From: an uncultured Desulfobacteraceae bacterium
GTDB taxonomy: Bacteria; Desulfobacterota; DSM-4660; Desulfatiglandales; HGW-15
Length of the DNA stretch: 64,000 nt
Reading direction: 5' to 3'
NCBI GenBank assembly: GCA_964418945.1
Contig: CAYQNR010000003.1
Location: 24,125 to 88,124, forward strand
In this document: positions 8,923 through 58,693 of the stretch, piece by piece
Layout of the letters: each line of letters begins with the position of its first letter
Position numbering within the stretch: the first letter of the stretch is position 1
Translations under genes and position numbers: made by a program
The notes under the pieces: generated by a model
Told to the model about the DNA's origin: nothing
What the model saw: only the letters and a program-made list of their open reading frames with translations
Database searches by the model: none

Positions 8923-8999
8923 TGGGGTGAGTGATGGGACTTGAACCCACGACCGCTGGGGCCACAACCCAGTGCTCTTCCGACTGAGCTACACTCACC
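8923..8999 (-). tRNA. tRNA-His (GTG)
   Basis: Reverse complement GGTGAGTGTAGCTCAGTCGGAAGAGCACTGGGTTGTGGCCCCAGCGGTCGTGGGTTCAAGTCCCATCACTCACCCCA: cloverleaf, GTG anticodon, G-1, C discriminator, encoded CCA. Confidence 0.97.
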
Positions 9000-12186: not shown

Positions 12187-12693
12187 TTGTTCCGGATAGG
12201 TTTAGGATATGACGCCCATCGTCTTGTAAAAGGACGCCCCCTTATTATAGGGGGCGTCCGAATACCATTCGATTCAGGCCTGGCGGGACATTCGGACTCG
12301 GATGTCCTGACACATGCTATCATTGACGCTTTGCTCGGTGCGCTGGCAATGGGAGATATCGGTGTCCATTTCCCTGATGATGATCCGGATTACAAGGATG
12401 CGGATAGTATAGTAATGCTGGAAAAGGTAATGGAAATGGTCAAGGGAGAGGGTTACATAATAAATAACCTGGACAATACCATAATAGCTGAAAAGCCTAA
12501 GCTCGTGCCCTACATCAGGGGAATAAAAGAAGGGTTGTCCGGGGTTCTGGGAATCCCCAGCAATAAGATAAGTATAAAGGCCACCACTACAGAGGGAATG
12601 GGATTCTGCGGCCGCGGGGAAGGGATAGCCGCCTTTTCTGTGGTCAGTCTTGTCAAATCGGATACAGGTGATTCAGCCGGGGGCGGAGGATGA
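12187..12693 (+). CDS. ispF: 2-C-methyl-D-erythritol 2,4-cyclodiphosphate synthase
   Basis: RIGLGYDAH, GHSDSDV, GDIGVHFP, KATTTEGMGF; TTG start. Confidence 0.96.
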   Translation: MFRIGLGYDAHRLVKGRPLIIGGVRIPFDSGLAGHSDSDVLTHAIIDALLGALAMGDIGVHFPDDDPDYKDADSIVMLEKVMEMVKGEGYIINNLDNTIIAEKPKLVPYIRGIKEGLSGVLGIPSNKISIKATTTEGMGFCGRGEGIAAFSVVSLVKSDTGDSAGGGG

Positions 12694-26398: not shown

Positions 26399-26651
26399 CT
26401 ATAATGTTGTATCGTTACCAGTTTCACATCCCGGCATTCTGTAATCTTTTCTATAAATATTGCCGTTAACATACGCCTCAAGGATCTCGTCAACAGCACC
26501 CGCTGCAAACGATACAATCTTGATCCCGCGCCTCTCCGCCCAGCACCCTGCCTTTCTCGTCCTTGAGTAAAGAGGTACATACCACCACCGGGATCCGGCG
26601 TTTCTGGCTATCCACAATATATGTAGAGGTATCAGCAAAGGCCTTTCCCAT
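26399..26651 (-). pseudogene. chimeric remnant: PAS-domain fragment fused to NifB/NifX C-terminal fragment
   Basis: Frame 1: MGKAFADTSTYIVDSQKRRIPVVVCTSLLKDEKGRVLGGE (PAS C-terminal strands). Frame 2 from about 26535: RRGIKIVSFAAGAVDEILEAYVNG...YRMPGC (NifB/NifX tail). Confidence 0.65.
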
Positions 26652-26709
26652 TTGCTAGTCGACCTCCAGTGAAAACCTGGACATAAAAGAATTAAATTTA
26701 AAACGTAAT

Positions 26710-26738
26710 AGTATACTAAATATATCAACATAATTCAA
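26710..26738 (-). promoter_or_regulatory. sigma70-type promoter facing the remnant and the ATPase operon
   Basis: Minus strand TTGAAT, 17-bp spacer, TATACT. Confidence 0.55.
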
Positions 26739-26827
26739 TATTAAACCTCCCCAAACACCCAGCCTCGGCTTGAGGTGCTGCCAGTGTCCATGATGGATAA
26801 TTTGGGAAAATCAAGGCCCTAAAAAGA

Positions 26828-27139
26828 TGGTTCATCCGGTTAATGAGTACACCTAATTATAAAAACCTTTTAACCTTGGAAAGGGTCATGGTGTCTTTTC
26901 GGAGTGACTGGCGGAAGGCCTTCGTCATTTCAGGATGTTAGAGAATGGGGGACCCCCTGGCCCCGAGCGGAAGCGAGGGGAACAGCGGAGGGGGGAGGGT
27001 TCACCCGTCTCTAACATCTTGAAATGACCAGGCCGTGAGACTTAGAAACGGAGAAAAGATACCATGGCCAGTGGCGGCTTTTAGCACTAATTTTGAATAT
27101 ATTTACCCCTTCTATCGTACTCGTTAACCGGATAAACCA
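26828..27139. repeat. non-coding element: 23-bp terminal inverted repeats around a 186-bp palindromic cassette (MITE/REPIN-like)
   Basis: TGGTTCATCCGGTTAATGAGTAC (26828-26850) vs GTACTCGTTAACCGGATAAACCA (27117-27139), 21/23; inner arms 26924-26944 / 27008-27028, 20/21. Confidence 0.8.
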
Positions 27140-27171
27140 AAAAATAATGAGCATAATATGTAAAAAAACTA

Positions 27172-27199
27172 TTGACATTTATTGGATAAATTCTATATT
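27172..27199 (+). promoter_or_regulatory. sigma70-type promoter of the DUF134 operon
   Basis: TTGACA (27172-27177), 16-bp spacer, TATATT (27194-27199). Confidence 0.55.
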
Positions 27200-27218
27200 A
27201 TGGGCATACGCTCATAAT
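27197..27218. promoter_or_regulatory. operator-like palindrome
   Basis: ATTATGGGC-ATAC-GCTCATAAT, arms 8/9 complementary, overlapping the -10 and the likely start site. Confidence 0.45.
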
Positions 27219-27229
27219 AGGAAAAAGGA

Positions 27230-27568
27230 ATGCCAAGACCTAGAAAGCCAAGATTCGTTCAGGGACATCCTATTGTGGAGGCCTTTGTCCCTGCCAGCAC
27301 GCCTCCATGGGGCAGAAAAGAGGCCTTTCTTACCATTGAGGGGCTTGAGGCCATCAGGTTAATCGATTTTCAGGGGATGGATCAGGAGACAGCCGCTAAG
27401 ATGATGAATGTCTCTCGCCAGACCTTTGGGAGAATCTTGGCTGAGGCCAGGGCAATTGTTGCTGATGCCCTGGTTATGGGCAAGATACTCAGGATAGAGG
27501 GTGGACATTTTGACATGCCGCCCAGAGGAAGGGGCCGGCACGGCCGCGGTTGGGGCGGCAGATTTTAG
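27230..27568 (+). CDS. DUF134 (UPF0251) HTH DNA-binding protein
   Basis: MPRPRKPR, EGLEAIRLID, QETAAKMMNVSRQTF.RIL..AR...ADAL..GK..RIEGG. Confidence 0.92.
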   Translation: MPRPRKPRFVQGHPIVEAFVPASTPPWGRKEAFLTIEGLEAIRLIDFQGMDQETAAKMMNVSRQTFGRILAEARAIVADALVMGKILRIEGGHFDMPPRGRGRHGRGWGGRF

Positions 27569-27587
27569 AGAAAAGGAGGTGTTTATT

Positions 27588-27980
27588 ATGCCAGGATTGA
27601 ATGGAACAGGACCCAGGGGCGAAGGCCCCATGACCGGTGGTGCTCGCGGTTATTGCAACCCGGCCTATGCAGGTTACGGTGCCCCATATGGCCGAGGATA
27701 CGGACTAGGCGGGGGTAGAGGTTTCAGGAGAGGCTCCGGACCCGGCTTCGGTTGGGGCCGCGGCTACGGTTATGGAAGAGGTTTTGGCCGGAGAGGTGCT
27801 TATCCTCCTGCCGGAGGATGGTATGGACCAGCCTACGATGCCCCGTATGGAAACCCCTATGGCATGAAACCCGAGGATGAAGTCAATATGCTTAAGAACG
27901 ACGCATCAGCCATAAAGGACGAACTCGATGCGATAAACAAACGTATCGAAGAGATTGAGTCGCAATCTTCGGAATCATAA
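27588..27980 (+). CDS. DUF5320-family protein
   Basis: MPGLNGTGPRGEGPMTGGARGYC, GRG repeats, C-terminal coiled coil; AAGGAGG RBS before ATG 27588. Confidence 0.88.
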   Translation: MPGLNGTGPRGEGPMTGGARGYCNPAYAGYGAPYGRGYGLGGGRGFRRGSGPGFGWGRGYGYGRGFGRRGAYPPAGGWYGPAYDAPYGNPYGMKPEDEVNMLKNDASAIKDELDAINKRIEEIESQSSES

Positions 27981-28115
27981 TCATGACCGAGGGGAAAATA
28001 GTGGCCGGGCCTAAGGATACCTATCTCAAGATATCTTATCCTGGGCCCGGTGCCTCTAACTGGCCGGCATATAACAGATAACGGTTAACAGAGACACCGG
28101 AAAGACGGCGAAAAG

Positions 28116-28961
28116 ATGAGGAATATTTCAACAATAATCTCCAAGGTGCTTCCGCCCGCCATATTAATACCAATAGTATTGATTACATTTTCATTGCAAT
28201 ACAATCAGGCATGGACAGGGCCAGTCCATAAGGACACAGCACAGCTTGTAATAGTCTATGACAACAATATATGGGAACAGGGTTTAACACCCGCCTGGGG
28301 CTTTTCATGCCTGGTAATCCTTCCTGAATATCGTATCCTCTTTGATACAGGGGGTGACCCCTCCATATTGCTTGAGAATATGGATGAGATGGGTATTGAT
28401 CCCGAAGACATAGAAAGCGTGGTACTATCGCATATACACGGGGACCATATAGGCGGCCTTTCAGGGTTGCTTTCCCATAAAAACCGTCCCGTCACCGTCT
28501 ACCTCCCTGAATCCTTCCCTCATAACACCAAGGAACAGATAGCCCTTATGGAGGCCGATATTAAGGAAGTGGGAGGCCCCTTGATGATCCATCCGGGTGT
28601 TCACACTACCGGGGAACTCGGGGAGACCATAAAAGAGCAATCCCTTGTCCTTCAAACCCGCAAAGGCCTTGTGGTTATTACCGGTTGCGCTCACCCCGGT
28701 ATCGTGGAGATCGTTGATTTCGCCCGAAGCCATTTTAAGGAAAATGTCTATCTTCTTATCGGCGGCTTTCATCTCATAGGAAAATCTCAGAATGAGATAA
28801 AAGGAATCGCGGAGCAGTTAGATAAACTGGAGATAGACAGGATAGCTCCATGTCATTGCAGCGGAGATACGGCAAGGGAGGTTTTCAGGGATTATTATGG
28901 AGAAAACTACATTGAATGCGGGGCGGGCCTGGTATTGAATATTCCGGATATTAGAGAATGA
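28116..28961 (+). CDS. MBL-fold metallo-hydrolase (COG1237-like)
   Basis: VYDN, WGFSC, LFDTG, SHIHGDHIGG, GCAHPG, GGFH, HCSG. Confidence 0.9.
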   Translation: MRNISTIISKVLPPAILIPIVLITFSLQYNQAWTGPVHKDTAQLVIVYDNNIWEQGLTPAWGFSCLVILPEYRILFDTGGDPSILLENMDEMGIDPEDIESVVLSHIHGDHIGGLSGLLSHKNRPVTVYLPESFPHNTKEQIALMEADIKEVGGPLMIHPGVHTTGELGETIKEQSLVLQTRKGLVVITGCAHPGIVEIVDFARSHFKENVYLLIGGFHLIGKSQNEIKGIAEQLDKLEIDRIAPCHCSGDTAREVFRDYYGENYIECGAGLVLNIPDIRE

Positions 28962-29745
28962 AAGGGGGCCTTTCCAGATACGACCTGGCCCGCTCATAGA
29001 TCTCCGAAACACGGGTGGATTCTTTGGGAAGTGCGTTTCGGATCTTTTCAAGATATCCACGTTCCCGGACGATTTGAAATGTCCGCGGGAAGTTTAAATC
29101 ATATACCCACCCCATCTGAAGTAACTTGAAATCGTTCAGTGTCTTGAGGTCGGCCATCTGCGCCAGCTTCCCGTTCATAAGCGCATTATAGACCGGTTCC
29201 GAAACCCGATCTGTATCAGGCAAATCCAATTCAATAGTATGGTTACGTTTTTCCCCCCTACGTTGATAGTAGTCTGTTACCACACGCCAGATATCGACTT
29301 TATCAGCATCCCTGAGGAGTTTCAGGAAAAAGAGGCAACGCTCTTCTTCTCCTGGTGGCAAAGAGGCACGATTATGGTATCCCACAACCTTCAGGATTAT
29401 TTGGGCCGTACCCGGTTCAAGTCCAGCCAGGAGCCGGTTATCTTTTATAACTTTGACTCCAAGGGCAGCATGGTCCTCCGACCGGTAATCCGAAAATGTC
29501 CTATACTGGATATATTGTTGGAATCGACCGATATCGTGTAACAACGCGGATGCCTCAGCCACGCACAGGTCTTCTTCGCATAGATCGAGGCTCCCCCCAA
29601 TATCTATGATTGCCTCGCAGACACGGAGGGTGTGGGCTACTTTTAGATCAATGTTTTCCCGGATAACCGGGTCATCGGAAGAGAACTGACCGACATAGCC
29701 CTCAAATCGTTCTTTAAGCCTCGGAAGCATGGACTGCGCGTTCAT
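28951..29745 (-). CDS. HD-domain metal-dependent phosphohydrolase
   Basis: LKVAHTLRV, LLHDIGRF.QY, DHA..G, RDADK.D. Confidence 0.88.
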   Translation of the reverse strand: MNAQSMLPRLKERFEGYVGQFSSDDPVIRENIDLKVAHTLRVCEAIIDIGGSLDLCEEDLCVAEASALLHDIGRFQQYIQYRTFSDYRSEDHAALGVKVIKDNRLLAGLEPGTAQIILKVVGYHNRASLPPGEEERCLFFLKLLRDADKVDIWRVVTDYYQRRGEKRNHTIELDLPDTDRVSEPVYNALMNGKLAQMADLKTLNDFKLLQMGWVYDLNFPRTFQIVRERGYLEKIRNALPKESTRVSEIYERARSYLERPPFIL

Positions 29746-29794
29746 CTTTGCTTCTCATCCCTGCCCGCCCGGCAGGCCATTAATACCTGATTCG

Positions 29795-29968
29795 TCATGA
29801 AGGGCACGCCCCCGGGCCTATCCTCGATTTCTTGGTCCCCCTCGCGATCCATTCTAAAAGCCTGTGCATGAATCCCTGTTTTTGAGTTCCCTGCAGGGAG
29901 GGATCGCTATGCGAAGGTTTAATAGCGCTGTTTCCTTCTGGGTTTTTAACTCTTTCCTTGATCTCCAT
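29795..29968 (-). CDS. small hypothetical protein (57 aa), below the ORF-track cutoff
   Basis: MEIKERVKNPEGNSAIKPSHSDPSLQGTQKQGFMHRLLEWIARGTKKSRIGPGACPS*; AAGGA RBS; fills the gap between DUF89 and HD genes. Confidence 0.45.
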   Translation of the reverse strand: MEIKERVKNPEGNSAIKPSHSDPSLQGTQKQGFMHRLLEWIARGTKKSRIGPGACPS

Positions 29969-30812
29969 TAAATCCTTCGGCTTTCAAGACAATATCACCT
30001 TCATTAACGCCGATATCGGCGGCAATTACATTACACTTAGCCTTTAACAAAAACAATATGGGCCGTCTTTTCCCTGACAGGGCCTCATAGTTGCCCTGCC
30101 CCTTACTTATGATTAATTCTGAATTGTCATAAAGTCTCTTGAATCCATCATTACAAGTTTCAAGGACGGTCCCGGGCGCGTCGGTCCCGGAAGATAATAT
30201 GGTGGCAACCTTATCAATACCTGCTTCTGCTGCGTCTTCGTATATGGCGTCATTTATAACCGGCACCTCCCTTACTATATATATAACCGGTTTCTTTATT
30301 TCCTCTATCAGAATTCTGTCAAAGACACATTCACCGGCATTATCTCCAATATATAAGATTGTGCTGACTTTATTCAGGTTTTCTTTGAATGTCCCATAGT
30401 CACATATGGCGAAATCCTTATCAAGGACATCATCCATATCATCCTTCAGATCAAAATTCGAATTAACTCCAAAGTCTATCACATTTCCGGCAATAGCAAT
30501 TCTAATAGCGCTCAGAAGTCTGTCCTTTGACTTCTCCAGATGTTTTTTCATATAGGGATAAAGAGACAGCGCCTTTTTGGTATTTTCCTTTTTTATTTCT
30601 CTATAGGGGTCAGGATTCCCCGTAATCTCACTTATCTTTTTATAGATTATCCTCCCGGTTTCAGGGGGAGAGCTCTCCAGAGGGATCTCCCTAAGCATCA
30701 TGCCCACTTCGTCTAATACCTCCTTGATCTTCTTTTTATCATCTGTTGCTATCCTCGCGGCTCGGAGCGCCTGGGACATAAAGCAGGGGAAACAGTCAAG
30801 ATATGTCTTCAT
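29946..30812 (-). CDS. ARMT1/DUF89-family metal-dependent phosphatase
   Basis: MKTYLDCFPC, DPY...K, GNVIDFG, DNAGE, SKGQGNYE. Confidence 0.92.
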   Translation of the reverse strand: MKTYLDCFPCFMSQALRAARIATDDKKKIKEVLDEVGMMLREIPLESSPPETGRIIYKKISEITGNPDPYREIKKENTKKALSLYPYMKKHLEKSKDRLLSAIRIAIAGNVIDFGVNSNFDLKDDMDDVLDKDFAICDYGTFKENLNKVSTILYIGDNAGECVFDRILIEEIKKPVIYIVREVPVINDAIYEDAAEAGIDKVATILSSGTDAPGTVLETCNDGFKRLYDNSELIISKGQGNYEALSGKRRPILFLLKAKCNVIAADIGVNEGDIVLKAEGFNGDQGKS

Positions 30813-30838
30813 TTTCCCAAATCCTATCTTCAAAAATG

Positions 30839-31720
30839 TGGTTCATCCGCTTAATGAGTACATAAAGAAATAAAAGATCAGACCTTATTTTCTGAGTAGG
30901 TTAATGGCCCATGGAGGCTCTCTTTTACGCGGCGAAAGTATTAACAGCATGCTAATTACGCAAGGTGCCACCCAGGCGGGCGGAATAGTTATGAGATAAT
31001 AGAGAATTTTTGACTGGGGCCAAGTCTGACAAAGGGTACCCGCCCGCCTCGTCTTGTCTTATGCAGGGTCACTGCACATAAACGAGTTCGCCGCTTAAAA
31101 CAGAACCCCATGGCCCATATAGCACAATATATCATCACGTAAGGTCACGGCTGTTCTTGGAAAGACGACATCTCAAAAAGAATTCCACCCAAGGCCTGCA
31201 GTGGGCTTATTTTCAAGGGTTTGCTCTACCAGACCCCTGGCAGAATATACCGTTGGAACCAGGAAAAGGTTTGCCAAACCCTTGAAAATAAGAGCACGTC
31301 CACTGAATGCCATAGATGTCGTCTTGAAAAGAACCAGCTGTGACCGGATATTAGGGATACCTTTATCCAGTCATGATATTTTGGTCCAATCGGTTAATGA
31401 GTACGTAAAGAAATAAAAGATTAAACCTTATTGTAAGTACCTTAATGGCCCATGGAGGCTCTCTTTTACGCGGCGAAAGTATTAACAGCATGCTAATTAC
31501 GCAAGGTGCCACCCAGGCGGGCGGAATAGTTATGAGATAATAGAGAATTTTTGACTGGGGCCAAGTCTGACAAAGGGTACCCGCCCGCCTCGTCTTGTCT
31601 TATGCAGGGTCACTGCACATAAACGAGTTCGCCGCTTAAAACAGAACCCCATGGCCCATATAGCGCAAAATGTTTAGTTTAGATATCATCAACTAGCGTA
31701 CTCATTAACCGGATGAACCA
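30839..31720. repeat. non-coding array: 23-bp motif, cassette A, cassette B, 23-bp motif, identical cassette A', inverted 23-bp motif
   Basis: 30901-31123 identical to 31442-31664 (223/223 by eye); cassette B 31143-31345 with perfect arms 31206-31223/31275-31292 and 31162-31173/31314-31325; motif copies at 30839, 31382 and 31698 (inverted). Confidence 0.85.
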
Positions 31721-31791
31721 AAATGTCTTGTTTTATTTTTCCGGTCTTCGTCGAGATCATATATAATTATTTACCTTTTTCTTTCAAGGCA

Positions 31792-32028
31792 CTAATTAAT
31801 ATGCCTTATTGTAATGGCATGTAATCGACAGGCCTCCAAACAATCCCCGCAGCCCATGCACATATCCTGAAATACAATGGGAGGCTCGAAAGCTCCGTCT
31901 ATCTGGGTCAGAACCTTATGTGTACACGCCTTTGCTGCTTCGCAAATACCTGTCTCCGGGTTGCACTTGCTTGGATCACATATATCGTAATCTACAAAAG
32001 CGAATTCCTTTTTTGGCTGAATAGACAT
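31792..32028 (-). CDS. small 4Fe-4S ferredoxin (RLI-type N-terminus)
   Basis: AFVDYDICDPSKC...C...C and CMGCGDCLEAC. Confidence 0.8.
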   Translation of the reverse strand: MSIQPKKEFAFVDYDICDPSKCNPETGICEAAKACTHKVLTQIDGAFEPPIVFQDMCMGCGDCLEACRLHAITIRHIN

Positions 32029-32375
32029 TTGAACCTTCTATTAAATATAATATTTAACATAAATATAAAAGTGGCACATTTCAAGATGGGCGAATCCTAT
32101 ATTAAGTCGTTTTAATGCTTAGAATCATATAAGTATCAAATATCTAAACATGTAAAATGCTCAAAACATCCTTCTGTTAGGAATAAGAGGGACCAATCTT
32201 CCTAAAGAAATAGACGCCGACCATCTATAATCAGGAGAATTAGATAAACTTATGAATGGTAGGGGGTCCGAATCAAACAGGGAATTAGATGGAGGCTCTT
32301 ACAGATTAGTATTACGCAAGATTTTAACCGGGCCCTGTTGCTTCTAATTCAGTTCATTAAGGAGCCCGCAAATAA

Positions 32376-34247
32376 TCAAGAAGATAAATGTCTGTCTATT
32401 CCCTCCGCGGCTATTTTGGCGTCAGCAATGGCGGTTACCGCATCCAGATTTGTATTGACAATATCGCCGCCGGCAAAGACCTTTTCTATGGTGGTCTGTC
32501 CGTTCTCATCAACCTTAACCTTCCTTCTCTCGGTAAACTCAAGTTTCGCGAAAAGTTCTTCAGGTATAAATGAAAAATCTGTCCTCTGGCCGATGGCCTC
32601 GATTATCATATTCCCTTCCAGGAACATCTCTTTATCCTCATAAAAGGTAGGACTGAATCTGCCTTGCTCATCAAACACCGATTTTACCTTCACGCACTGA
32701 AGACCTTTTACCTCTCCTTCTTCACCTAAGACGACCTCCTTCGGCCCCCAGGCGGGATTAAAGCGGATTCCCTCCTCTTTTGCCTCTTCTATCTCATCTT
32801 CTTTTGCCGGCATTATATCCCAGTCTTCCAGAGACACGGTCTGGGTCATAATCTCTTTTCCCGGGTGCTGAATATTCTGCAGTCGGAGGGCCACCCTGGC
32901 CACATCCATGGCTACATTACCTCCGCCTATCACAACGGTCTTTTCACCTACTTCAACGGCCCTCCCGAGCTTATTATCTTCCAAGAAATTAAGCGCCAAA
33001 AGGCACTTTTCAGCATTCTTGACCCTGGTTGAATTGCTCCTGGTAGTCCCTATTCCCAGATAGACCGCATCGTAATCTCTCCTAATATCCTCGAATAGAA
33101 GATCTTCCCCCACAGTTGTATTAAACCTGAATTCAACCCCAAGAGAAGCAATATAATCCACATCTTGATCAATCGCCTCTATGGGCAATCTATAAACCGG
33201 GGGACCGATTCTCATGGTTCCTCCTCCACCCGGCAGAGAATCAAATACTGTTACCTCATGTCCTTTAAGCCTCAAAAAATAGGCCACTGACAGGCCCCCT
33301 GGTCCCGCGCCGATAACAGCAACCTTTTTGCCCGTAGGTTTACCCGGTTTAAGCTCTAAAGCAGTCTTGTAATCCCCAATAATATCAGCGACATATCTCT
33401 TCAGCCACCTTACAGCTACGGCCTCTCCTCTTATACTCAGGGAACATGCGTCTTCACAGTATTTCATGCATACCCTTCCACAGATAGCAGGAATCGGATT
33501 ATCTTCAAATATCTTCTTTAAAGACTCTTCCGGTTTATCTTCGTAGATTGCCCGGATATAGTCGGAAATCTTTAAATGGGCCGGACAGGCCTCTTCACAT
33601 AATCTACATTCCAGGCATCTGGATGCCTCCTTCTTTGCCTCCTCTTTGCTATAACCTATAACCTGCTCTATAAAGGATAGTTTCCTTGCCTCAGGCCTTA
33701 CCTCAGGCATTGGGACTCGTTCCGGTTCAAATAAGGAATATTCGAGATCGGATGAAAACCCCTCATAATCCTTTTTACGGTGGCTCAGGCTTGCCTTGAG
33801 CACGGAATATTCCTCAGCAGGGAAAAAATGTTCATTGTCCAACTTTTCATCTTTGGGGATGAAAGTAAAAGTGTCTGTATCAAAATGGATATGAAAATAG
33901 TCCCTGGAGAGGCTTAAGGACCCGGGAGGACATATATCTACACAGAGACCGCAAAAACAGCATCTGCCATAGTCAAGCCTGGGTCTTTCATTTTTTATCC
34001 CCTCTTTTGGTTTGCTCGCTAATTCAGGTATCTCTACCATCTCAATTGCTTCGTTAGGGCATATATCAGCACAATTACCGCACCCGGTGCATTTATCCCA
34101 GTCGTTAAGATGGAAACCCCTATATCTTAAAGCAGGCTCTTTAGGTTCGAAAGGATACCTCAAGGTCTTCGGTCTCTTCCAGAGAAACCTGATAGCTTTG
34201 AATGCCCCTAAAAAACTCCCTTTGTTTTTTTCTAATTTTTCCATCAT
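32376..34247 (-). CDS. NuoI/MbxN-like ferredoxin fused to GltD-like FAD/NAD(P)H oxidoreductase
   Basis: T..YPFE, CTGCGNCADICP, CCFCGLCVDICP; then SRCLEC..CEEACP, ICGRVC..YCE..C, GAGPGG, GGGNVAMD, FAGGD. Confidence 0.9.
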   Translation of the reverse strand: MMEKLEKNKGSFLGAFKAIRFLWKRPKTLRYPFEPKEPALRYRGFHLNDWDKCTGCGNCADICPNEAIEMVEIPELASKPKEGIKNERPRLDYGRCCFCGLCVDICPPGSLSLSRDYFHIHFDTDTFTFIPKDEKLDNEHFFPAEEYSVLKASLSHRKKDYEGFSSDLEYSLFEPERVPMPEVRPEARKLSFIEQVIGYSKEEAKKEASRCLECRLCEEACPAHLKISDYIRAIYEDKPEESLKKIFEDNPIPAICGRVCMKYCEDACSLSIRGEAVAVRWLKRYVADIIGDYKTALELKPGKPTGKKVAVIGAGPGGLSVAYFLRLKGHEVTVFDSLPGGGGTMRIGPPVYRLPIEAIDQDVDYIASLGVEFRFNTTVGEDLLFEDIRRDYDAVYLGIGTTRSNSTRVKNAEKCLLALNFLEDNKLGRAVEVGEKTVVIGGGNVAMDVARVALRLQNIQHPGKEIMTQTVSLEDWDIMPAKEDEIEEAKEEGIRFNPAWGPKEVVLGEEGEVKGLQCVKVKSVFDEQGRFSPTFYEDKEMFLEGNMIIEAIGQRTDFSFIPEELFAKLEFTERRKVKVDENGQTTIEKVFAGGDIVNTNLDAVTAIADAKIAAEGIDRHLSS

Positions 34248-35341
34248 CTGTCTATTTCCGGAGCAACAACATATAGGCTTATCATGATATTGCCCACATC
34301 GGCAATGCTGGCATCTTTTAACAACCTTTCCAGAATGGTCAACCCATGAGTATATGAAGGGGTCCTAAAGTTTACCCTATAGGGTTTATCCCCGCCATTG
34401 CTTACCATATAAAGACCTAACTCTCCTCTGGAAGACTCAATTCTTACATAGGCCTCTCCTTTTGGAATTTTCCATTTGAACGGGTTAAGCACCTTACTAT
34501 ATGCCTTTCCTTGAGGCATAGCGTCAAGGAGCTTGAATATCATATGAACGCTTTCTATCATCTCGTTCCTTATTACCCATATCCTCGAATAGGCGTCACC
34601 GTCTTCCCTTGTATGAACATCCCAGTCTATACTATCATAAGCGGCATAGCTTTCGACTTTCCTTACGTCATATTTTACGCCTGTAGCCCTCAGGACCTGG
34701 CCCATCGCCCCGAGCTTCTTTGCGTCTTCCCGGGTTATTTTCCCTATATCCTTGGCCCTATCGTAAAATAAACGGTTGTTAAAAAAGGTGGAATCATAAT
34801 CCGGCACACAGCCCCCTATGGAATGCAGGGTATTCACAATCCTATCCTTGAATCCCTCCGGGAAATCGCGCCTTACTCCACCGGGCCAGATATATATATG
34901 ATATACCCTCCCCCCTGTAAGTTCCTCAAAAAGGTCCAGGATAAGATCCCTGTGATACATGGCCCATTGAGCAACAGTATCAAAACCAAGCATATTGGAA
35001 TAGGCCCACAAACCAAACAGGTGGGAAGAGACCCTGGAAAGCTCCAGATATACGCTCCTTATATAGTGCGCCCTTTCCGGGACCTCTATATTGGCCAGTT
35101 TCTCAACGGCCATTGCATATACCATTTCCATTGGATCAGGTTCCACCACATTTATCCTGCATACCAATGGAAAGTTCTGTATCCAGGTCCTCAGTTCCAT
35201 GAGTTTTTCAAAACCTCTATGCAAATACCCGGGGTTGGCAGTCGCCTCCAGGATACGATCGCCTTCAACCTTTAAGGTAATGCTGAAGTTGCCTACCATC
35301 CCCAGATGCTGGGGTCCAAAATATAGTTCAAGTTCTCTCAT
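34244..35341 (-). CDS. mbxL: NuoD-like subunit, MbxL/MbsL type, without NiFe-binding CxxC motifs
   Basis: FGPQH, ANPGYLHRGFEKL, EELTGGRVYHIY..PGGVRRD, ES.RGE, KPYRV, C-terminal PEIDR. Confidence 0.85.
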   Translation of the reverse strand: MRELELYFGPQHLGMVGNFSITLKVEGDRILEATANPGYLHRGFEKLMELRTWIQNFPLVCRINVVEPDPMEMVYAMAVEKLANIEVPERAHYIRSVYLELSRVSSHLFGLWAYSNMLGFDTVAQWAMYHRDLILDLFEELTGGRVYHIYIWPGGVRRDFPEGFKDRIVNTLHSIGGCVPDYDSTFFNNRLFYDRAKDIGKITREDAKKLGAMGQVLRATGVKYDVRKVESYAAYDSIDWDVHTREDGDAYSRIWVIRNEMIESVHMIFKLLDAMPQGKAYSKVLNPFKWKIPKGEAYVRIESSRGELGLYMVSNGGDKPYRVNFRTPSYTHGLTILERLLKDASIADVGNIMISLYVVAPEIDR

Positions 35342-35892
35342 TTCTCTTTATTCTCTACAAACGGGATTTCGTCAAAAAAGTCCTTAACATATTTTCTCGT
35401 ATCAAAATCCTTTCTAAAAGGAGGTATTTCATATTCCCTTTCCAGAAAAAGCGGAATCAGTCTTGGATGCCCCTCAAAATCTATTCCGAAGAGCTCGTGT
35501 ATCTCACGCTCATAGGCTTCAGCGTTTTCAAAAACAGGGATTGCGGTAATAAATCTGGGGTCTTCCCTGGGGATTCTTGTCTTCAAGATTATGTTTAACC
35601 TGTTATCAACACCTGCCCTTTGATCAACCGGTTCATCAGGCATCTTGTTTCCAACCGGGGTTATGTCTGCTTTATAAGAACTGATTATGTAAATCAGCTC
35701 GAATTCGTTTTCTTCTATCCAGTCCGTACAGGATATTAGGGCCAGGTGGTCATATCCCTTATCCTTAAGAAAATTCAGTATGGTCAGGATCATAGCCCCC
35801 CGGGCGCTTATAATCAGCCTGCTGTTCTCTGGAACGAATATTTGAATGTCTTTAAATATAGATTCCAACTCATTTTTTAAAGCGCTAATCAT
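35338..35892 (-). CDS. NuoC/MbxK-like subunit
   Basis: DHL..ISC.DW, YEREIHELFGI.FEGHP.L, PPFRKDF. Confidence 0.88.
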   Translation of the reverse strand: MISALKNELESIFKDIQIFVPENSRLIISARGAMILTILNFLKDKGYDHLALISCTDWIEENEFELIYIISSYKADITPVGNKMPDEPVDQRAGVDNRLNIILKTRIPREDPRFITAIPVFENAEAYEREIHELFGIDFEGHPRLIPLFLEREYEIPPFRKDFDTRKYVKDFFDEIPFVENKEK

Positions 35893-36445
35893 TCCCGCCC
35901 CCTATTGAGTATAATGGCGGCCAATCAAGCTTGCCAAGCACCCTTTCCTGGTTCTCTCGATAATACTTGTATTTCTCCCTGTAGTTTACATACGCCTTGG
36001 CCTTTCCCTGATCAATTAATGTCCAGAGGTGTGTTACAGCGACAAATATTGCCTCGGGCCTGGGCATACACCCGGCAATCCAGCCATCTATAGGGATATA
36101 TTTGTCAAGATGCTTTATGGTATTGTATGAATCCCAGTACATGCCGCCGTTTATAGGGCAGGAGCCGAAACCTACTGCGTATTTTGGATCAGGCATCTGT
36201 TCATATGTCCTTATAATGGCCCTCAGGGTCTTTACCGAGACATATCCTGTAATTAGAAATAGATTTGCCTGCCTGGGAGTAGCTACAGGTATAACCCCAA
36301 ACCTTTCCGCGTCCCACCTTGCGGTTATAACCGGGGGTATCTCTATAATCCCGCAACCTGTACAAAAGTATATGGCCCAGAGGGAATACTTGTGTCCCAT
36401 CTTGCCGGGAGCTTTAAACCATTTTTTAATATCTTTTCTGTCCAT
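35885..36445 (-). CDS. mbxJ: NuoB-like Fe-S subunit, MbxJ/MbsJ type
   Basis: SLW...FCTGCG.IE, ERFG, ITGYV..KTL, GSCPINGG.YWD.YN, AGCMPRPEA. Confidence 0.88.
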   Translation of the reverse strand: MDRKDIKKWFKAPGKMGHKYSLWAIYFCTGCGIIEIPPVITARWDAERFGVIPVATPRQANLFLITGYVSVKTLRAIIRTYEQMPDPKYAVGFGSCPINGGMYWDSYNTIKHLDKYIPIDGWIAGCMPRPEAIFVAVTHLWTLIDQGKAKAYVNYREKYKYYRENQERVLGKLDWPPLYSIGGGND

Positions 36446-36449
36446 TGAA

Positions 36450-37340
36450 TTATCTTATTATCATAACCAGGATTAATCCCAAGAGAGATATGATCACAGG
36501 CCATTTCCACAGGTATTTAATTGCCTGCTCGATTCTAAATCTCGGGAAGACTCCATGAATAAAGGTTAATAAAATAAACACAACTAACATCTTTATAAAG
36601 AAGGTCAACGGGTTACTCCCGCCTCCCAGGAATAGATCCACGAATAAGGCGATATAAATAAATAAGCTGAAGGCGTGCCATATGTGAAATAGACCCAGAT
36701 GCCTGCCCCCGTATTCTACCGCGGGTCCTGATGAAATCTCTTGTGGCGCGCCTGCAACATCAAAAGGCCGAATCCCCAACATGGCCGGCAGGATTAAAAA
36801 ATAGGCTATCCCTGATAAGGCCAGCGGTGAGAACAAGGCCCACTGAAAATTCCTTTGATTCTCAACTATATCCACAATAGAGATCGTATTATAATAGGTC
36901 ATCAATGTAAGCAATACTAATAGAAATGAAACCTCATATCCCAAGGCTAATATAAGCTTCCTGGAAACCCCAATGCTGATATTCGGATTTGCGCCCTCGC
37001 CGCCGGATAGGGCAATCCCTAAAGGCGCAAAAAGCATAATATAAAGTATAACAAGTAATCCTCCTGAATTGCTCAGGGGGCATATTCCGCCAAATGGAAT
37101 AAAAAGCACCAGAATTATAGAACCTGCTAAAGCTAGGATTATGCCCAGATCAAAAACAGGGCCATGCGAGAACCCCTGCTGGTGAAATAATTTAATCAAA
37201 TCCAAAACGGGCTGAATGATCGGCGGACCGTAACGCCAATGGAGCCTTGCTGTAATCTTTCTGAACAGGCCTAAGAAAAATACCCCGACTATAAAGGCTA
37301 AAATGGGTGATACAATTATTTCCAATACTTTTATTACCAT
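36450..37340 (-). CDS. NuoH/MbxM-like membrane subunit
   Basis: RKITARLHWRYGPPI.QP, PFD...A.QEI..GP..EY.G, FPRFRIEQ. Confidence 0.9.
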   Translation of the reverse strand: MVIKVLEIIVSPILAFIVGVFFLGLFRKITARLHWRYGPPIIQPVLDLIKLFHQQGFSHGPVFDLGIILALAGSIILVLFIPFGGICPLSNSGGLLVILYIMLFAPLGIALSGGEGANPNISIGVSRKLILALGYEVSFLLVLLTLMTYYNTISIVDIVENQRNFQWALFSPLALSGIAYFLILPAMLGIRPFDVAGAPQEISSGPAVEYGGRHLGLFHIWHAFSLFIYIALFVDLFLGGGSNPLTFFIKMLVVFILLTFIHGVFPRFRIEQAIKYLWKWPVIISLLGLILVMIIR

Positions 37341-39178
37341 AGCTTCAATCCCATCTTAAGAATAATTAAGACGGCAAAAAACAGTACGATATAGGTTATA
37401 TAGTAACCCAGGTCTCCACAATATATCTTTCTTGTCTTATCACTTACGTTCTTAACTCCATTTGCCAGCCATTGGTAAAAGTCATCTACAAAATCCCTGA
37501 AATAGGGCCTGATCATTGCTGATAACGGGTTGTAAAATTCAACCGTGTGATGATATTTATCCCTTGGCACATGGGCCCCTGCCGCGTAACTGTTATCCTG
37601 GGAGATATTTACCTTTTTATCTCCTATAAAAAACAACAGCCAGGCAATGATTAATGCCACGCAGATTGCGGCAAATATGTTTACCATGTTCAAGATCCCT
37701 GTTTCGGAAGCGATCCCCCAGATTTCAACATTCTGAGGCTGAAAGCCAAAAGAAGTCGAGATCGTATCTATAACTTTAAGAGGGATTCCGGGGAGGATCC
37801 CAAAGACTACAACAACAAGGCTTAAAAAAATTACCGGGATCCTCATGGTAACAGGGGACTTTTGGACATTGCTGAATTTTTCCGGCAACTGCCCTAAGAA
37901 TATATTATGGATAAGCTTATATGAATAAAGGATTGTTCCCCATGTTCCAAAAAGAGCTATAAAGGCAAGGAACGGATGTTTCCCTAAAATCAAGGTCTTG
38001 TATATCAGCCACTTGGATACAAAACCATTAGTTGACGGGACACCAATTAAGCCTAATGCCCCTATCAAGGCACAAGTGAAGGTTATGGGCATTCTTTTTA
38101 TCAGGCCGCCAAGAGAATTTAGATCTCTTGTCCCTGTCCTGTATTCTACCGCGCCTATGCTCAAGAAAAGCAAGGATTTAAATGCGGCATGATTGAAGAA
38201 ATGGAATACCCCTCCCACAAAACCCAGACTCGTCCCGATAGTTATGCCTAAGATTATATATCCTACCTGGGCGATGCTTGACCAGGCCAGGAGTCTTTTG
38301 GCATCATCCTGTAAAACAGCAATGAACGTGGGGACAATAATAGTTATCGCTGCCAGTACGCAAAACAGGTAATGGAAACTTCCTCCTCCTATATTCAGAA
38401 ACAGGTTTAAGCCCGCGATTGCGTACATAAAAAGGATAAAACCATATGTGCCCATTTTAATTAATATCCCGGAAAGAACAGCACTAAAAGGAGAAGGTGC
38501 TTCGGAGTGGGCATCAGGAAGCCAGGTATGAAAAGGCGCAATCGCGTTCTTAATCCCAAAGGCAATACAAAAGGAAATTAAAATAAACAAGGTGTAGCCG
38601 GAGGAGGCTTGTGTAATAAAGGAAGAAACTAGTGTTATATCCAGACTTCCACAGTTTGCATAAAGGGATAATATCCCGATAAGCATAGCTACGGAGCCGA
38701 TAATAGACATGATAATATATTTCATGCCTGCCTGCAATGCAGGACCTTTATTATAACTTATTAAAAGAAATGTGGACCAGGACATAATCTCCCAGAAGAT
38801 ATAGAAGGAAACCAGGTCAGCGCTGAGAACAATGCCTAACATTCCGGCATTCACTAAAAGTAGCATTAAATAATAAAAGTCAAGCCTCTCTCTTCCCTTC
38901 ATATAGCTTAAAGAAAAGATCACAGAAAGAGATGTTATTGTCTGAATAGCTATGGCAAAAATCCAGGAAAGAGGGTTTATCCTTAAAAGAAGGGGTAGCC
39001 CTAAAAAAGAGAAATAGGTTAATTCCTCGGTTTTTCCATAGAAATACAAGATAGGAATAATCAGGATCAAAGAGATAAAGACGGCGAAAGCATCCCTTAA
39101 CTTGGATGAGACCTTACCCAAAAGATAGGTAAGAAATGCGCCACCAAAAGAAATAAAACCTAACTGTGCTAAATTCAC
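37334..39178 (-). CDS. MrpD/NuoL-like antiporter-type subunit (MbxH'-like)
   Basis: FYIFWEIM, PFHTWLPDAHSEAPSP.SAVLSG, KRLLAWSSI, NHAAFKSLLFL. Confidence 0.9.
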   Translation of the reverse strand: MNLAQLGFISFGGAFLTYLLGKVSSKLRDAFAVFISLILIIPILYFYGKTEELTYFSFLGLPLLLRINPLSWIFAIAIQTITSLSVIFSLSYMKGRERLDFYYLMLLLVNAGMLGIVLSADLVSFYIFWEIMSWSTFLLISYNKGPALQAGMKYIIMSIIGSVAMLIGILSLYANCGSLDITLVSSFITQASSGYTLFILISFCIAFGIKNAIAPFHTWLPDAHSEAPSPFSAVLSGILIKMGTYGFILFMYAIAGLNLFLNIGGGSFHYLFCVLAAITIIVPTFIAVLQDDAKRLLAWSSIAQVGYIILGITIGTSLGFVGGVFHFFNHAAFKSLLFLSIGAVEYRTGTRDLNSLGGLIKRMPITFTCALIGALGLIGVPSTNGFVSKWLIYKTLILGKHPFLAFIALFGTWGTILYSYKLIHNIFLGQLPEKFSNVQKSPVTMRIPVIFLSLVVVVFGILPGIPLKVIDTISTSFGFQPQNVEIWGIASETGILNMVNIFAAICVALIIAWLLFFIGDKKVNISQDNSYAAGAHVPRDKYHHTVEFYNPLSAMIRPYFRDFVDDFYQWLANGVKNVSDKTRKIYCGDLGYYITYIVLFFAVLIILKMGLKLW

Positions 39179-40722
39179 CTCAGTACTCCCTGGATGTATT
39201 TTATTCTATCAAGAAGCTCCAGGGAGGAAGAATTGAGAATATCACCCAAAAACTTCGGATAGATACCTATACCGATAATAAGCAATACGAGAATAACCAT
39301 GGGGATCAAAGCCACTATAGGTGCCCCTGTCTTTACAGCGTTAGAACTCTTTACCTCTTGTACCACAGAGGCTTCCGGGATCTTATTTACGATGGGGTCT
39401 GTCTCTTCGGTGTCTCCCTTGAAATAGAGAACCTGAATTACTTTAAAAAAATATGCCGCCTCGATCACTGTCCCCAACAGGACAATCCCTATAAAAACAA
39501 TGTATAAAGTACTATGTTTTTCCAAGACAGAGAGCACAATCCAAAATTTGCTGGGAAAGCCTACAAAAGGCGGAAGCCCTATCAAGGAAAAAGCGCCGAT
39601 GGTAAAACATAACGAAGACAGCGGCATCTTTTTCCCTATTCCTTCCAATGAAGAGATTTCCATCGAGCCTACTCGATAGATCATGTATCCTGTAGCCAAA
39701 AACAGAAGGGACTTAGAAAGGGCATGGGTTATAAACTGAAACAGGCCGGCAGCTATTCCATAATCCGTACCGATTCCTAAGGCAAAAAGGATAAGTCCTA
39801 TCTGGCCGATACTGGAGTAGGCAAGCATCCTTTTTATATTGTTTTGGCTGAACGCAGATAACTCTCCCACCAACAGGGTTAAAAGACCTAAAAGGACCAG
39901 GAAAAGCAACATATCAGATGCCCCAAAAATGGTGAACACCACCCTTGCTATGGCATAAATCCCTATCTTTATGGCTATCCCTGAAAGAACAGCGCTTATG
40001 GTGGAAGGAGCGGAAGAATGGGCATCCGGAAGCCAGGCATTCAAAGGAAAGATGGCCCCTTCAATTCCAAATCCGACGATGAATAGAACAAGAGGTATGA
40101 ATATTTGAATCGGGCTTACTGAATGTATATTTCCGGCGATATCAGCCATGTTGAGGGTCCCGAACTGTCCGTACAGAAGCGCGATCCCGATCAAAATAAA
40201 GGCAGAGCCTACGGAACCCTGAATCAGGTATTTGGCGGCAGATTCTACGCCCGCTCTATTTCCTAAATAACCTACCAGGGCGTAAGAGGAGATGCATAGG
40301 ATCTCAAAAAAGACAAAAAGATTGAATATATCCCCTGTCAAAACAACCCCTGTGGCACCTGTAAGAAGCGACAGATAAAGCATGTGATACTTCTCTTCAG
40401 CACCTTCCTTTATATAATCAAGCGCATATATGGAGACAAGAAAACCAACCAGGGCGATAACAGCGGAAAATAGGATACCTACCGGGCCCGCAAACAGGTT
40501 TATGCAGAAAGGGGGAGGGAATCCCGCAAGGGACACGACTATAGGTCTTTTGATAACTTCCGGCATTAGAATAAGAGAGATAACCAGATTAAACAGCATG
40601 GCAAGGGGAGGGATGAACCTTTCCACCCTTTTAGAAATAAATCCAAACAGAGGAATAGAAAAGGCAAATGCCAGAGGAACAGCTATAAGAAGGATGGGGT
40701 TTACCCAATTAGAGATTTCCAT
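39175..40722 (-). CDS. mnhD: MrpD/MnhD antiporter subunit
   Basis: GDIFNLFVFFEI, WLPDAHSSAP, IKRMLAYSSI, HALSKSLLF. Confidence 0.9.
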   Translation of the reverse strand: MEISNWVNPILLIAVPLAFAFSIPLFGFISKRVERFIPPLAMLFNLVISLILMPEVIKRPIVVSLAGFPPPFCINLFAGPVGILFSAVIALVGFLVSIYALDYIKEGAEEKYHMLYLSLLTGATGVVLTGDIFNLFVFFEILCISSYALVGYLGNRAGVESAAKYLIQGSVGSAFILIGIALLYGQFGTLNMADIAGNIHSVSPIQIFIPLVLFIVGFGIEGAIFPLNAWLPDAHSSAPSTISAVLSGIAIKIGIYAIARVVFTIFGASDMLLFLVLLGLLTLLVGELSAFSQNNIKRMLAYSSIGQIGLILFALGIGTDYGIAAGLFQFITHALSKSLLFLATGYMIYRVGSMEISSLEGIGKKMPLSSLCFTIGAFSLIGLPPFVGFPSKFWIVLSVLEKHSTLYIVFIGIVLLGTVIEAAYFFKVIQVLYFKGDTEETDPIVNKIPEASVVQEVKSSNAVKTGAPIVALIPMVILVLLIIGIGIYPKFLGDILNSSSLELLDRIKYIQGVLR

Positions 40723-40787
40723 TTATACCGACCATGCTCCTTGAAAAAACATAATCATTGTCACCAACATAACATTTCTAACAGGTC

Positions 40788-41147
40788 TTACCACCTCTGC
40801 TCTTTGATCTTTCTCATATCAAGGGTTCCATAATGCTGATACAACCTGATGGCTAGAGACAAGGCCATGGCCATGACCGCCACACCAATAACAATCGCTG
40901 TTAAGACAAGCGCCTGGACGGTCGGATCGACCATATTCTCTGAAGCAAGTCCCGGCTTAGAAAATATAGGCGCTGTTCCATCCTTTATATATCCTAAAGA
41001 TACAAGTAAAAGGTTAACCCCTGTATCCAAGACACAAATTCCTATTATCATCTTGATCAGATTATGTTTGGTTAAAAGGATATATAATCCGATCAATATA
41101 AGACCGAAAGCCCCGATGTAATAGATATAATCGGCCAAAAAACTCAT
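40788..41147 (-). CDS. mnhC: MrpC/MnhC antiporter subunit
   Basis: NLIKMIIG, GVNL, DPTVQALVLTAIVIG. Confidence 0.92.
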   Translation of the reverse strand: MSFLADYIYYIGAFGLILIGLYILLTKHNLIKMIIGICVLDTGVNLLLVSLGYIKDGTAPIFSKPGLASENMVDPTVQALVLTAIVIGVAVMAMALSLAIRLYQHYGTLDMRKIKEQRW

Positions 41148-41827
41148 TCGCTTTCCTCTATCAAGCCATCGATGATTCCGGTCAACTCGGAACCTACCTT
41201 AAAACCGATGGCGATATATATTATGGGGATGATGCCAGCGCTCAAAAGGGTATTTGGAATTCCCCTGGGCAGAAAATTAAAAAGAAAATACCCGCTTACA
41301 GCCAATCCTAAAAACCCTATAATTACGAATATCAATCCTGCCGAGGATTCTATAGCTTTGATACTCCTCTCTTTTACCCTTCTTTCACGACAACCTAAAT
41401 AGACCAAAAGGAAAGCCGAAGCAATAATTGCTCCACCCTGAAAACCACCTCCTGGCGTGAGGTGTCCGTGTAAAAATATGTAAGCGGCAAAGAGCAAGAT
41501 AAAAGGGAAAAGGGATCTACAACCCGTACTAAGCACAAGGCTTGAAGGCACAAATTCCCTTCCGGGTTTTTTCTTGACGGTGGCAAGGATAGCGCCCAAT
41601 CCCGTGGCAGCGATAAAAAGCACGGTAACCTCGCCGAGGGTATCAAATCCCCTATAGTTTAAAACTACCGATGTCACTATATTTACGGCGCCCGTCTGAT
41701 CGATCCCTTTATCTATATAATACCTGCCTACCTTGGTTTTTGGTACGGCAAAGGGGATTTCCGTAAGAGATAAACCAAACCCTAAAGCTATAATTATCAA
41801 TAAAATAAGGCCTATTATTCTTCTCAT
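41144..41827 (-). CDS. mnhB: MrpB/MnhB antiporter subunit
   Basis: N.VTSVVLNYRGFDTLGE, HGHLTPGGGFQGG. Confidence 0.92.
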   Translation of the reverse strand: MRRIIGLILLIIIALGFGLSLTEIPFAVPKTKVGRYYIDKGIDQTGAVNIVTSVVLNYRGFDTLGEVTVLFIAATGLGAILATVKKKPGREFVPSSLVLSTGCRSLFPFILLFAAYIFLHGHLTPGGGFQGGAIIASAFLLVYLGCRERRVKERSIKAIESSAGLIFVIIGFLGLAVSGYFLFNFLPRGIPNTLLSAGIIPIIYIAIGFKVGSELTGIIDGLIEESE

Positions 41828-58119: not shown

Positions 58120-58322
58120 CCCTCTCTGCTCCTCTGATCCTCGACCGCTGGAATCTTCCTGGTCTACCATTAATCTTCCAGCTTATTTTAAACCCTTCTG
58201 TTCCCGGATTCGATATTCTTTTTAATGTTTTACACTCGACCCCTTGCATCCTAAAACATAACCACACAAAAAGCACCAAGACCTACACCTTGATAACCAA
58301 TATAATAAAATCTTGAACCGCA

Positions 58323-58656
58323 GGTCCCGGCTGGTCTTGACAAGAGCAGCCGGGACCGTAGCACATTTATTCCGTTATCCGGCCATGATACTTTTTTCAA
58401 GGTGATATCTATAGCATCCTCAGCAAGCGGTCAGATTTCAGGGGTTTAAAATACATCATCTTTATCATAACGGGAAATTCTTCGTGTTATTACGGGGCGT
58501 TAAACCCCTGAAATCAGACCGCGGCTATGCTTGGTTGCACTCTTTTTTTGAGATATCACCTCTCAAAAAGCACCATGACCTTCATATAGGTAAAGCAACC
58601 ACATTCCTCTTTAGCAACGAAGATCCCGGCTGGTCTTGAAAAGAGCAGGCGAGACC
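58323..58656. repeat. non-coding element: two direct 35-bp hairpins flanking a 200-bp palindromic cassette
   Basis: 58323-58357 vs 58622-58656, 31/35; cassette 58381-58580 with arms 58427-58449/58500-58522 (22/23) and 58400-58410/58551-58561 (11/11). Confidence 0.8.
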
Positions 58657-58693
58657 AGCAGCCCCGATATTCTTTTTAAACCATTCCATCTTA

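Follow-up and report, generated by a model that had tools for sequence, protein, structure and literature searches.

Intergenic arrays of different palindromic modules, split by a short conserved repeat, are known as BIMEs (REP clusters) in E. coli and as NIMEs (dRS3-flanked RS units) in Neisseria; BIMEs are tied to RAYT (Y1) transposases, and NIMEs to phage/IS110-type integration at dRS3. Bacterial MITEs, for which Correia/CREE of Neisseria, ERIC/IRU of enterobacteria, RUP of Streptococcus pneumoniae and Nezha of cyanobacteria may serve as examples, are small, non-coding, TIR-bounded elements that carry target duplications (TSDs), form long hairpins and occur in many copies between genes. REP, ERIC and Correia elements act as mRNA-stabilising or mRNA-terminating elements and can affect the expression of their neighbours. 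The insertion sequences (IS) of the ISL3 family typically make duplications of 8 bp (ISfinder). The open literature searched on ISL3-derived or Desulfobacterota MITEs consisted of general MITE surveys, with no account of the family described below.

The present analysis concerns an array of 882 bp, reaching from the motif L1 to the inverted motif R, situated between the genes of a ferredoxin and a DUF89 protein in a 64,000-nt stretch of DNA from an uncultured Desulfobacteraceae bacterium (this whole stretch is called the window hereafter). The array is non-coding, and it is very probably a composite of non-autonomous MITEs derived from an ISL3-family IS that is widespread in Desulfobacterota and common among Deltaproteobacteria of sulfate-reducing or syntrophic habit.

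Anatomy of the array and its autonomous partner

The order of parts given in the first-pass annotation (L1, A, B, L2, A', R) was recovered completely, with every part in place (Table 1). The exact repeat of 223 nt shared by the cassettes A and A' was likewise borne out, as was the divergence of their leaders, with 79% identity over the roughly 60 nt of TIR and leader that make up each left end. When extended, the A/A' repeat measures 241 nt at 98% identity, and the direct repeats are spaced by 541–543 bp. The 23-nt motif TGGTTCATCCGGTTAATGAGTAC was found at five sites with up to three mismatches in the 64-kb window, where shuffled sequences would be expected to give none.

Table 1 Positions of the array parts, the target duplications, element C and the adjoining genes in the window
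Feature	Position	Strand	Remarks
Motif TGGTTCATCCGGTTAATGAGTAC site	26828-26850	+	0 mismatches
Motif TGGTTCATCCGGTTAATGAGTAC site	27117-27139	-	2 mismatches
Element C, separate complete MITE, 312 bp	26828-27139	+	TIRs 26828-26850 and 27117-27139
DUF89/ARMT1-like gene	29946-30812	-	Start codon at 30812
TSD, left copy	30834-30838	.	AAATG on +, CATTT on -; 5 nt unambiguous, 6 nt only when the ambiguous terminal A shared with the TIR is counted
L1, outer left TIR	30839-30861	+	1 mismatch vs the ISL3-type consensus TIR
Leader 1, AT-rich subterminal sequence	30862-30905	+	Position matches the 5' UTR of the parent IS
Cassette A, 210-nt imperfect hairpin	30906-31115	+	Base GGCCCATGG...CCATGGCC; identity tract 30901-31123
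Recurrent A-to-B junction, equal to the left flank of the B module	31124-31142	+	Expected right TIR missing
Cassette B, 203-nt hairpin, second repeat family	31143-31345	+	Base GGTCACGG...CTGTGACC
B right flank/spacer GGATATTAGGGATACCTTTATCCAGTCATGATATTT	31346-31381	+	Followed across loci by the start of an L-type TIR
L2, internal left TIR	31382-31404	+	3 mismatches vs consensus; left end of a complete 339-bp MITE
Leader 2	31405-31446	+	From the alignment with family copies
Cassette A'	31447-31656	+	Same sequence as A; identity tract 31442-31664
Tail of the A-type MITE	31657-31697	+	Kept in family members
R, outer right TIR	31698-31720	-	0 mismatches; codes for the C-terminal ...YSLTG and the stop of the transposase in the autonomous IS
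TSD, right copy	31721-31725	.	AAATG; from the empty-site comparison
Small 4Fe-4S ferredoxin gene	31792-32028	-	

The observation that R is the exact reverse complement of a motif copy 4.9 kb away was confirmed by the inverted-repeat pair that the two form. What had been overlooked is that this copy possesses an inverted partner of its own, only 266 nt away, and that the two enclose a third hairpin (element C). A special link between R and the distant copy was considered and rejected; the exact consensus TIR makes up 67 of the 69 matches in reference genomes, and R is identical to the distant copy because both represent the family consensus.

The nature of the motif was established by comparing its degenerate 23-bp form with one genome per species (GTDB species set), which gave matches in 68 stretches of reference genomes, many of them no more than about 150 nt from a contig end. 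The titles of the matches were mostly those of Deltaproteobacteria/Desulfobacterota taxa (Syntrophus, Desulfobacteraceae, Desulfocapsa, Desulfatiglandales, Syntrophobacteraceae and Desulfoferrobacter among the named ones), a few read just "bacterium", and one was a Leptolinea MAG. Inverted pairs of the motif fell into two length classes, 1305–1318 bp and 108–537 bp. The long class (about 1.31 kb) encodes a single protein of 400–401 aa with the DDE_Tnp_ISL3 domain, and full copies were seen in Syntrophus, in Desulfoferrobacter suflitae and in Desulfatiglandales and Desulfobulbaceae MAGs. In two IS copies scanned from other genomes, PF01610 (DDE_Tnp_ISL3) was matched at E = 4e-78 and 1.4e-79; the ISL3 zinc ribbon PF14690 scored above the curated threshold in one copy (31.0 vs 25.5 bits) and below it in the other (22.6 bits), and the helix-turn-helix PF13542 (20.8 bits) fell short of its own. 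A protein 96% identical to the transposase carries the NCBI name "ISL3 family transposase [Syntrophus aciditrophicus]", and its relatives on contigs of 1.3–2 kb number in the thousands. Since the TIR pairs bound an ISL3 transposase gene, the motif is the TIR of an ISL3-family insertion sequence. Judged by its transposase, the partner IS is a bona fide member of that family, and the short class of inverted pairs is, by sequence, a class of MITEs belonging to it. The right TIR itself forms the final transposase codons (...RYSLTG and stop), which helps to explain the conservation of the TIR across genera.

Mobilisation of the short elements would need an ISL3 transposase acting in trans and binding the TIRs. 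No transposase was found by tblastn in the window or in 754 kb of metagenome loci with A-type copies. The copies agree at about 88%, and in this lineage the family may be an old one that is no longer active, a fossil.

The interiors of A, B and C showed no detectable nucleotide similarity to the autonomous IS, and the internal ORFs (at most 71 aa) gave no Pfam match. The predicted folding of the hairpins is stable, with z = -3.4 for A, -8.9 for B and -6.0 for the interior of C (26851–27116), and the whole array reaches -318.8 kcal/mol (z = -10). The IS also has a hairpin in its 5' UTR, about 20 nt inside the left TIR (base GGACATGGC...GCCATGTCC), and the 3' arm of this hairpin holds the Shine-Dalgarno sequence and the AUG of the transposase. 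By their position and an 8–9 nt resemblance of the stem base (for C, GGTCATGG...CCATGGCC; for A and B, see Table 1), the cassettes may be expanded descendants of the 5'-UTR hairpin, which in the IS would sequester the ribosome-binding site and the start codon of the transposase.

Family members, composites and the insertion site

Within the array, the segment L2-A'-R (31382–31720) is a complete MITE of 339 bp, collinear from end to end (TIR, leader, hairpin, tail, TIR) with MITEs of two other MAGs (L019 and L055). The first A has neither the tail nor the right TIR; its junction, CATATAGC followed by ACAATATATCATCACGTAAG and GGTCACGG, runs into B, and L1-A is the left part of a MITE fused to B. 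Element C is the second MITE locus of the window besides the array, and its hairpin is 78–83% identical to MITEs in at least nine other Desulfobacterota MAG contigs. A scan of metagenomes with a 20-nt core of A as the query gave 88 stretches; apart from four chance matches in GC-rich genes, these represent about 55 distinct loci. Nearly all of the stretches have the contig prefixes Ga03074xx and Ga03155xx, as do the contigs that bear the DUF89 gene of the window. Both TIRs are kept in 34 of the A copies, typically 327–339 bp apart. IS-matching TIRs, a TSD, small non-coding size, dispersed copies and an empty site, which together characterise MITEs, were thus all found; the whole array of 882 bp exceeds the usual MITE size and is composite.

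The composite structure is not peculiar to this locus. The same type of A-to-B junction occurs at eight or more other loci, and wherever the right flank of B (…TATCCAGTCATGATATTT) genuinely occurs (18 of 18 cases), a left TIR begins after it. This TIR is either whole, like that of the window, or truncated after 10–14 nt, with the 3' half of A joined to it. The architecture L-A-B-L-(A)-R recurs at L077/L107, L098, L082 and L103 with 83–87% identity; window positions 30840–31455 are matched collinearly at 85–87% by L077/L107 (678 bp) and L098 (692 bp), and L082 and L103 are variants. Such composites have duplications of their own, for example ATATTT/ATGTTT and TAATCT/TAATTT. Since the outer TIRs of the array are its best-kept ones (one mismatch in L1 and none in R, vs three in L2) and similar composites recur, the array can be assigned to a TIR-bounded composite subfamily; it is therefore a member of a subfamily that moved, or at least was seeded, as a TIR-bounded unit.

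At locus L078, the first MITE retains an intact right TIR directly before B, which suggests that the composite arose from adjacent elements through loss of their inner ends. In the window, L1-A is what is left of a second MITE copy: its right TIR has been lost, and B, to which it is joined, is a hairpin repeat from a related module family. The idea that B had been inserted into the right TIR that the first MITE now lacks, with GTA...CCGGAT as the remnants, was tried and rejected because CCGGATAT... belongs to the B repeat at unrelated loci. In L078 (1002–1260) B stands between two copies of CGGATGAACCA, which is the right TIR's last 11 nt; outside L078, the right side of B abuts at least the first 10 nt of a left TIR throughout. 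Extra hairpin modules (C-type, GGGTTCAAGGGGTC-type and CCCCTCTTAGGGGAGG-type) were observed at L103, L144, L118, L161 and L104, sometimes nested in the apex of the B stem, and TIR-bounded composites there extend up to 1148 bp.

Target duplications were assessed in 76 distinct L..R units from reference genomes and metagenomes by comparing the hexamers directly outside the TIRs. These were identical in 34 units and differed by one mismatch in 19 more, against 0.5% of identical pairs among shuffled partners; units with perfect 6-bp TSDs include composites of 480–842 bp. Full-length IS copies have a perfect 6-bp TSD in all cases but one (TAATTG, GAATTG, TAAATC, TAAGTT, CAATTC), so that the IS and the MITEs have the TSD length of 6 bp in common, and the targets of both are AT-rich. 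The flanks of element C match imperfectly (AAAAGA vs AAAAAT). An independent insertion of L2-A'-R with a duplication of its own was rejected, its flanks (ATATTT/AAATGT) being mismatched where those of the outer L1/R pair match.

An alignment of the DUF89–ferredoxin spacers of relatives, a check set beforehand, provided the corresponding empty site. The closest relative found, contig CAYUYB010000041 (L164) of a Desulfobacteraceae MAG, encodes a DUF89 protein 84% identical to that of the window, and its gene order is the same (Nuo-like genes, GltD-like gene, ferredoxin, DUF89, HD). Its ferredoxin–DUF89 spacer of 90 bp aligns across the insertion point and contains a single CATTT, reading ...AAAACGAGACATTTTTGAAGATAGGATTT..., whereas the window spacer on the same strand reads ...AAAACAAGACATTT, then the array from R to L1, then CATTTTTGAAGATAGGATTT..., that is, CATTT, array, CATTT. 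Deletion of the whole 882 bp (30839–31720) together with one CATTT restores the sequence of the relative, and the 882 bp between L1 and R therefore occupy one insertion site with a TSD. The array is carried by all strains sampled and is absent from this relative. Either the 882-bp unit would have been inserted whole into a CATTT/ACATTT target upstream of DUF89, or one insertion there would have seeded growth in place.

Identity of the two A cassettes and alternative readings

Comparison of 41 distinct A copies (820 pairs) gave a median hairpin identity of 88%, with the 95th percentile at 92%. The A/A' pair of the window is the single outlier at about 100%, and the next highest pair is at 96.8%. 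At 79%, the left ends of A and A' resemble each other as random family members do (median 72%), and each has nearer matches at other loci (up to 90% and 88%) than in its neighbour. In other arrays with two A copies, these are 80–84% alike. These comparisons exclude both a simple recent tandem duplication and the inheritance of already identical copies from an old composite.

The A/A' identity would best be explained by a recent event within this array, gene conversion or gap repair, that involved the two direct copies. The right end of the identity tract is the end of homology between the units (31124), and the left end lies 5 nt outside the stem base, near the palindromic CCATGG; these would be the limits of the converted tract. 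At L077/L107, L098 and L161 the second hairpin is precisely missing, and the residue GGCCCATGGCCC reads as a deletion between the direct CCCATGG repeats that the palindromic CCATGG base creates. The same repeats could delimit the re-acquisition of a hairpin by conversion, a behaviour that would look cassette-like without independent mobility.

A more far-reaching possibility, which we regard as unlikely, is that the hairpins of about 200 nt (A, B, C and others) are exchangeable modules, gained, lost and swapped at a palindromic stem base of the CCATGG/CCGTGACC type that derives from the translational-control hairpin of the IS. The MITEs would then be modular, self-assembling mosaics, and ISL3 transposition would be accompanied by hairpin-directed recombination or repair, or by a second mobilising enzyme active on B-type hairpins that lack TIRs.

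It had been proposed in the first-pass annotation that the cassette was copied or converted recently and independently of its leader, the cassette itself being the mobile unit. The copying agrees with the outlier identity and the diverged left ends. The mobility of the cassette is not supported: leader, hairpin and tail are collinear across genomes, and the TSDs and the empty site are found at the TIRs and not at the hairpin. The mobile unit is therefore the TIR-bounded element and not the cassette. Movement or exchange of a hairpin cassette between TIR/leader scaffolds, directed by the hairpin or its palindromes, would account for an identity tract that is almost exactly the hairpin, for the loss of exactly the hairpin in sister copies, for the shared position of the hairpin types A, B, C and others behind the same TIR, and for a lone B-like hairpin without TIRs at 58381–58580. 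It is nevertheless very unlikely, since every A hairpin found retains at least part of its own leader (an A hairpin without any leader was absent among the metagenome A-type loci), the two A copies of other arrays have diverged, and slippage between direct CCCATGG repeats explains the precise loss. No recombinase or integrase was found among the 10 flanking genes scanned. The lone hairpin (200 nt, base GGCCATGATAC...GCACCATGACC) lies in an intergenic region (58210–58680) that repeats CAAAAAGCACCA(A/T)GACC and holds smaller hairpins at 58320–58365 and 58620–58660; no ISL3 TIR was found in this region, and in its sequence features the hairpin is a TIR-less relative of the array modules.

Stable folding, stems conserved between species and the location of the array inside a probable co-directional transcription unit would also be expected if the cassettes were structured ncRNA genes or cis-regulatory RNAs, with the motif as their promoter or operator, retained because they serve the host, for instance by stabilising or terminating mRNA between ferredoxin and DUF89. 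This appears highly improbable. Rfam searches at gathering and permissive thresholds (E up to 10) returned tRNA and chance matches only, with no family matching the cassettes, and compensatory change was found in just 5 of 34 predicted pairs among the 41 A copies (covariation term 0.12 kcal/mol). Scans for consensus promoters and terminators gave no signal above chance, and the motif is demonstrably an IS end; a regulatory role would be secondary and exapted at most. The sole Rfam match at the gathering threshold in the window is a tRNA-His (GTG) at 8923–8998 on the minus strand.

Of 17 public contigs that encode the DUF89 protein, one, the independent 36-kb JGI contig L001, is 99.96% identical to the window over 26600–32100, array included, and L003, which has a different JGI sample id, agrees with the window array up to its contig end at 31564. 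Four shorter contigs end inside A (30913–31091), as expected at a repeat. All of the assemblies are short-read ones, and the 223/223 identity of A and A' is accordingly an identity as assembled, not provable base for base. Both junctions of A' (leader 2 and tail 2) combine copy-specific bases within a few nucleotides, which requires the support of real reads. A recent tandem duplication of a unit of about 541 bp, or an assembly artefact in which a repeat was collapsed or copied, would fit the regular spacing of the direct repeats and a 223-nt tract that exceeds short-read k-mers and inside which several contigs break, but it is scarcely credible given the left-end divergence, the same architecture with diverged copies at other loci and the agreement of two contigs from different samples.

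Genomic context and comparison with known systems

On the minus strand, to which both genes belong, the insertion lies 71 nt downstream of the ferredoxin stop codon, and L1 is 26 nt upstream of the ATG of DUF89, one less than the 27 first reported. The insertion has moved any promoter that the ancestral 90-bp spacer held upstream of this point to a distance of about 0.9 kb, and transcripts from the ferredoxin side must cross three hairpins predicted to be very stable. REP, ERIC and Correia elements offer a parallel that makes a change in DUF89 expression plausible.

The other flanking genes encode HD, metallo-beta-lactamase, DUF134, DUF5320 and radical-SAM proteins. Element C sits between a 110-aa ORF and DUF134, and the ORFs of DUF134 (27230–27568) and DUF5320 (27501–27980) overlap by 68 nt in different frames. 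The genes upstream of them (radical-SAM, Nitro_FeMo-Co-like and CbiA/ParA-ferredoxin) form a cluster that is conserved on the contigs of relatives. In the strain variant L003 (reverse complement, 1540–1890) the left TIR of C is degenerate and the apex of its hairpin bears a 31-nt insertion; synteny breaks exactly at this TIR, where an aminotransferase gene, on a flank absent from the window, replaces the radical-SAM side, which suggests a MITE-associated rearrangement. On the other side of the array, a long minus-strand operon (32376–41827) encodes Nuo-like subunits (49-kDa, 30-kDa, NuoB-like and NuoH-like). It ends with a 623-aa protein (455 aa in L164), in which 4Fe-4S domains are fused to a GltD-like NAD(P)H oxidoreductase, directly upstream of the ferredoxin gene. 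Elsewhere in the window, a 25-nt inverted repeat with a 6-nt gap (12218–12273), just inside the start of the ORF 12187–12693, has the look of a terminator-type hairpin.

What appeared to be a cassette array becomes annotatable as part of an ISL3-derived MITE family that litters the intergenic regions of uncultured Desulfobacterales. The family explains the fragmentation of assemblies at such sites, its 23-bp signature can be used for masking or annotating these repeats, and it flags sites of possibly altered expression (DUF89) and gene order (L003). The modular hairpin interiors and TIR-bounded composites make a modest case of MITE diversification; no new biological principle is demonstrated. 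The array is an ordinary kind of mobile DNA, and its family is one without a description in the literature searched.

With the autonomous ISL3-family IS, the window elements share identical 23-bp TIRs, the same 6-bp TSD and AT-rich targets, and the subterminal hairpin base resembles that of the 5'-UTR hairpin of the IS; they differ in having no transposase or recognisable IS interior. The present IS group itself departs from the typical ISL3 family by making duplications of 6 instead of 8 bp. The elements resemble the Correia/CREE, ERIC/IRU, RUP and Nezha MITEs in all of the traits listed at the outset and, by analogy, likely also in their influence on neighbouring transcripts. Unlike those MITEs, they have a branched hairpin interior of about 200 nt that is unrelated to the IS body and occurs in several exchangeable types, and their units are often joined in TIR-bounded composites of 500–1150 bp that still have TSDs. 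The likeness to BIMEs and NIMEs lies in the intergenic arrangement of different palindromic modules around a short conserved repeat. Here, however, that repeat is the end of an ISL3 (DDE) transposon, which argues against membership in the REP/BIME group, and whole arrays are flanked by TSDs.
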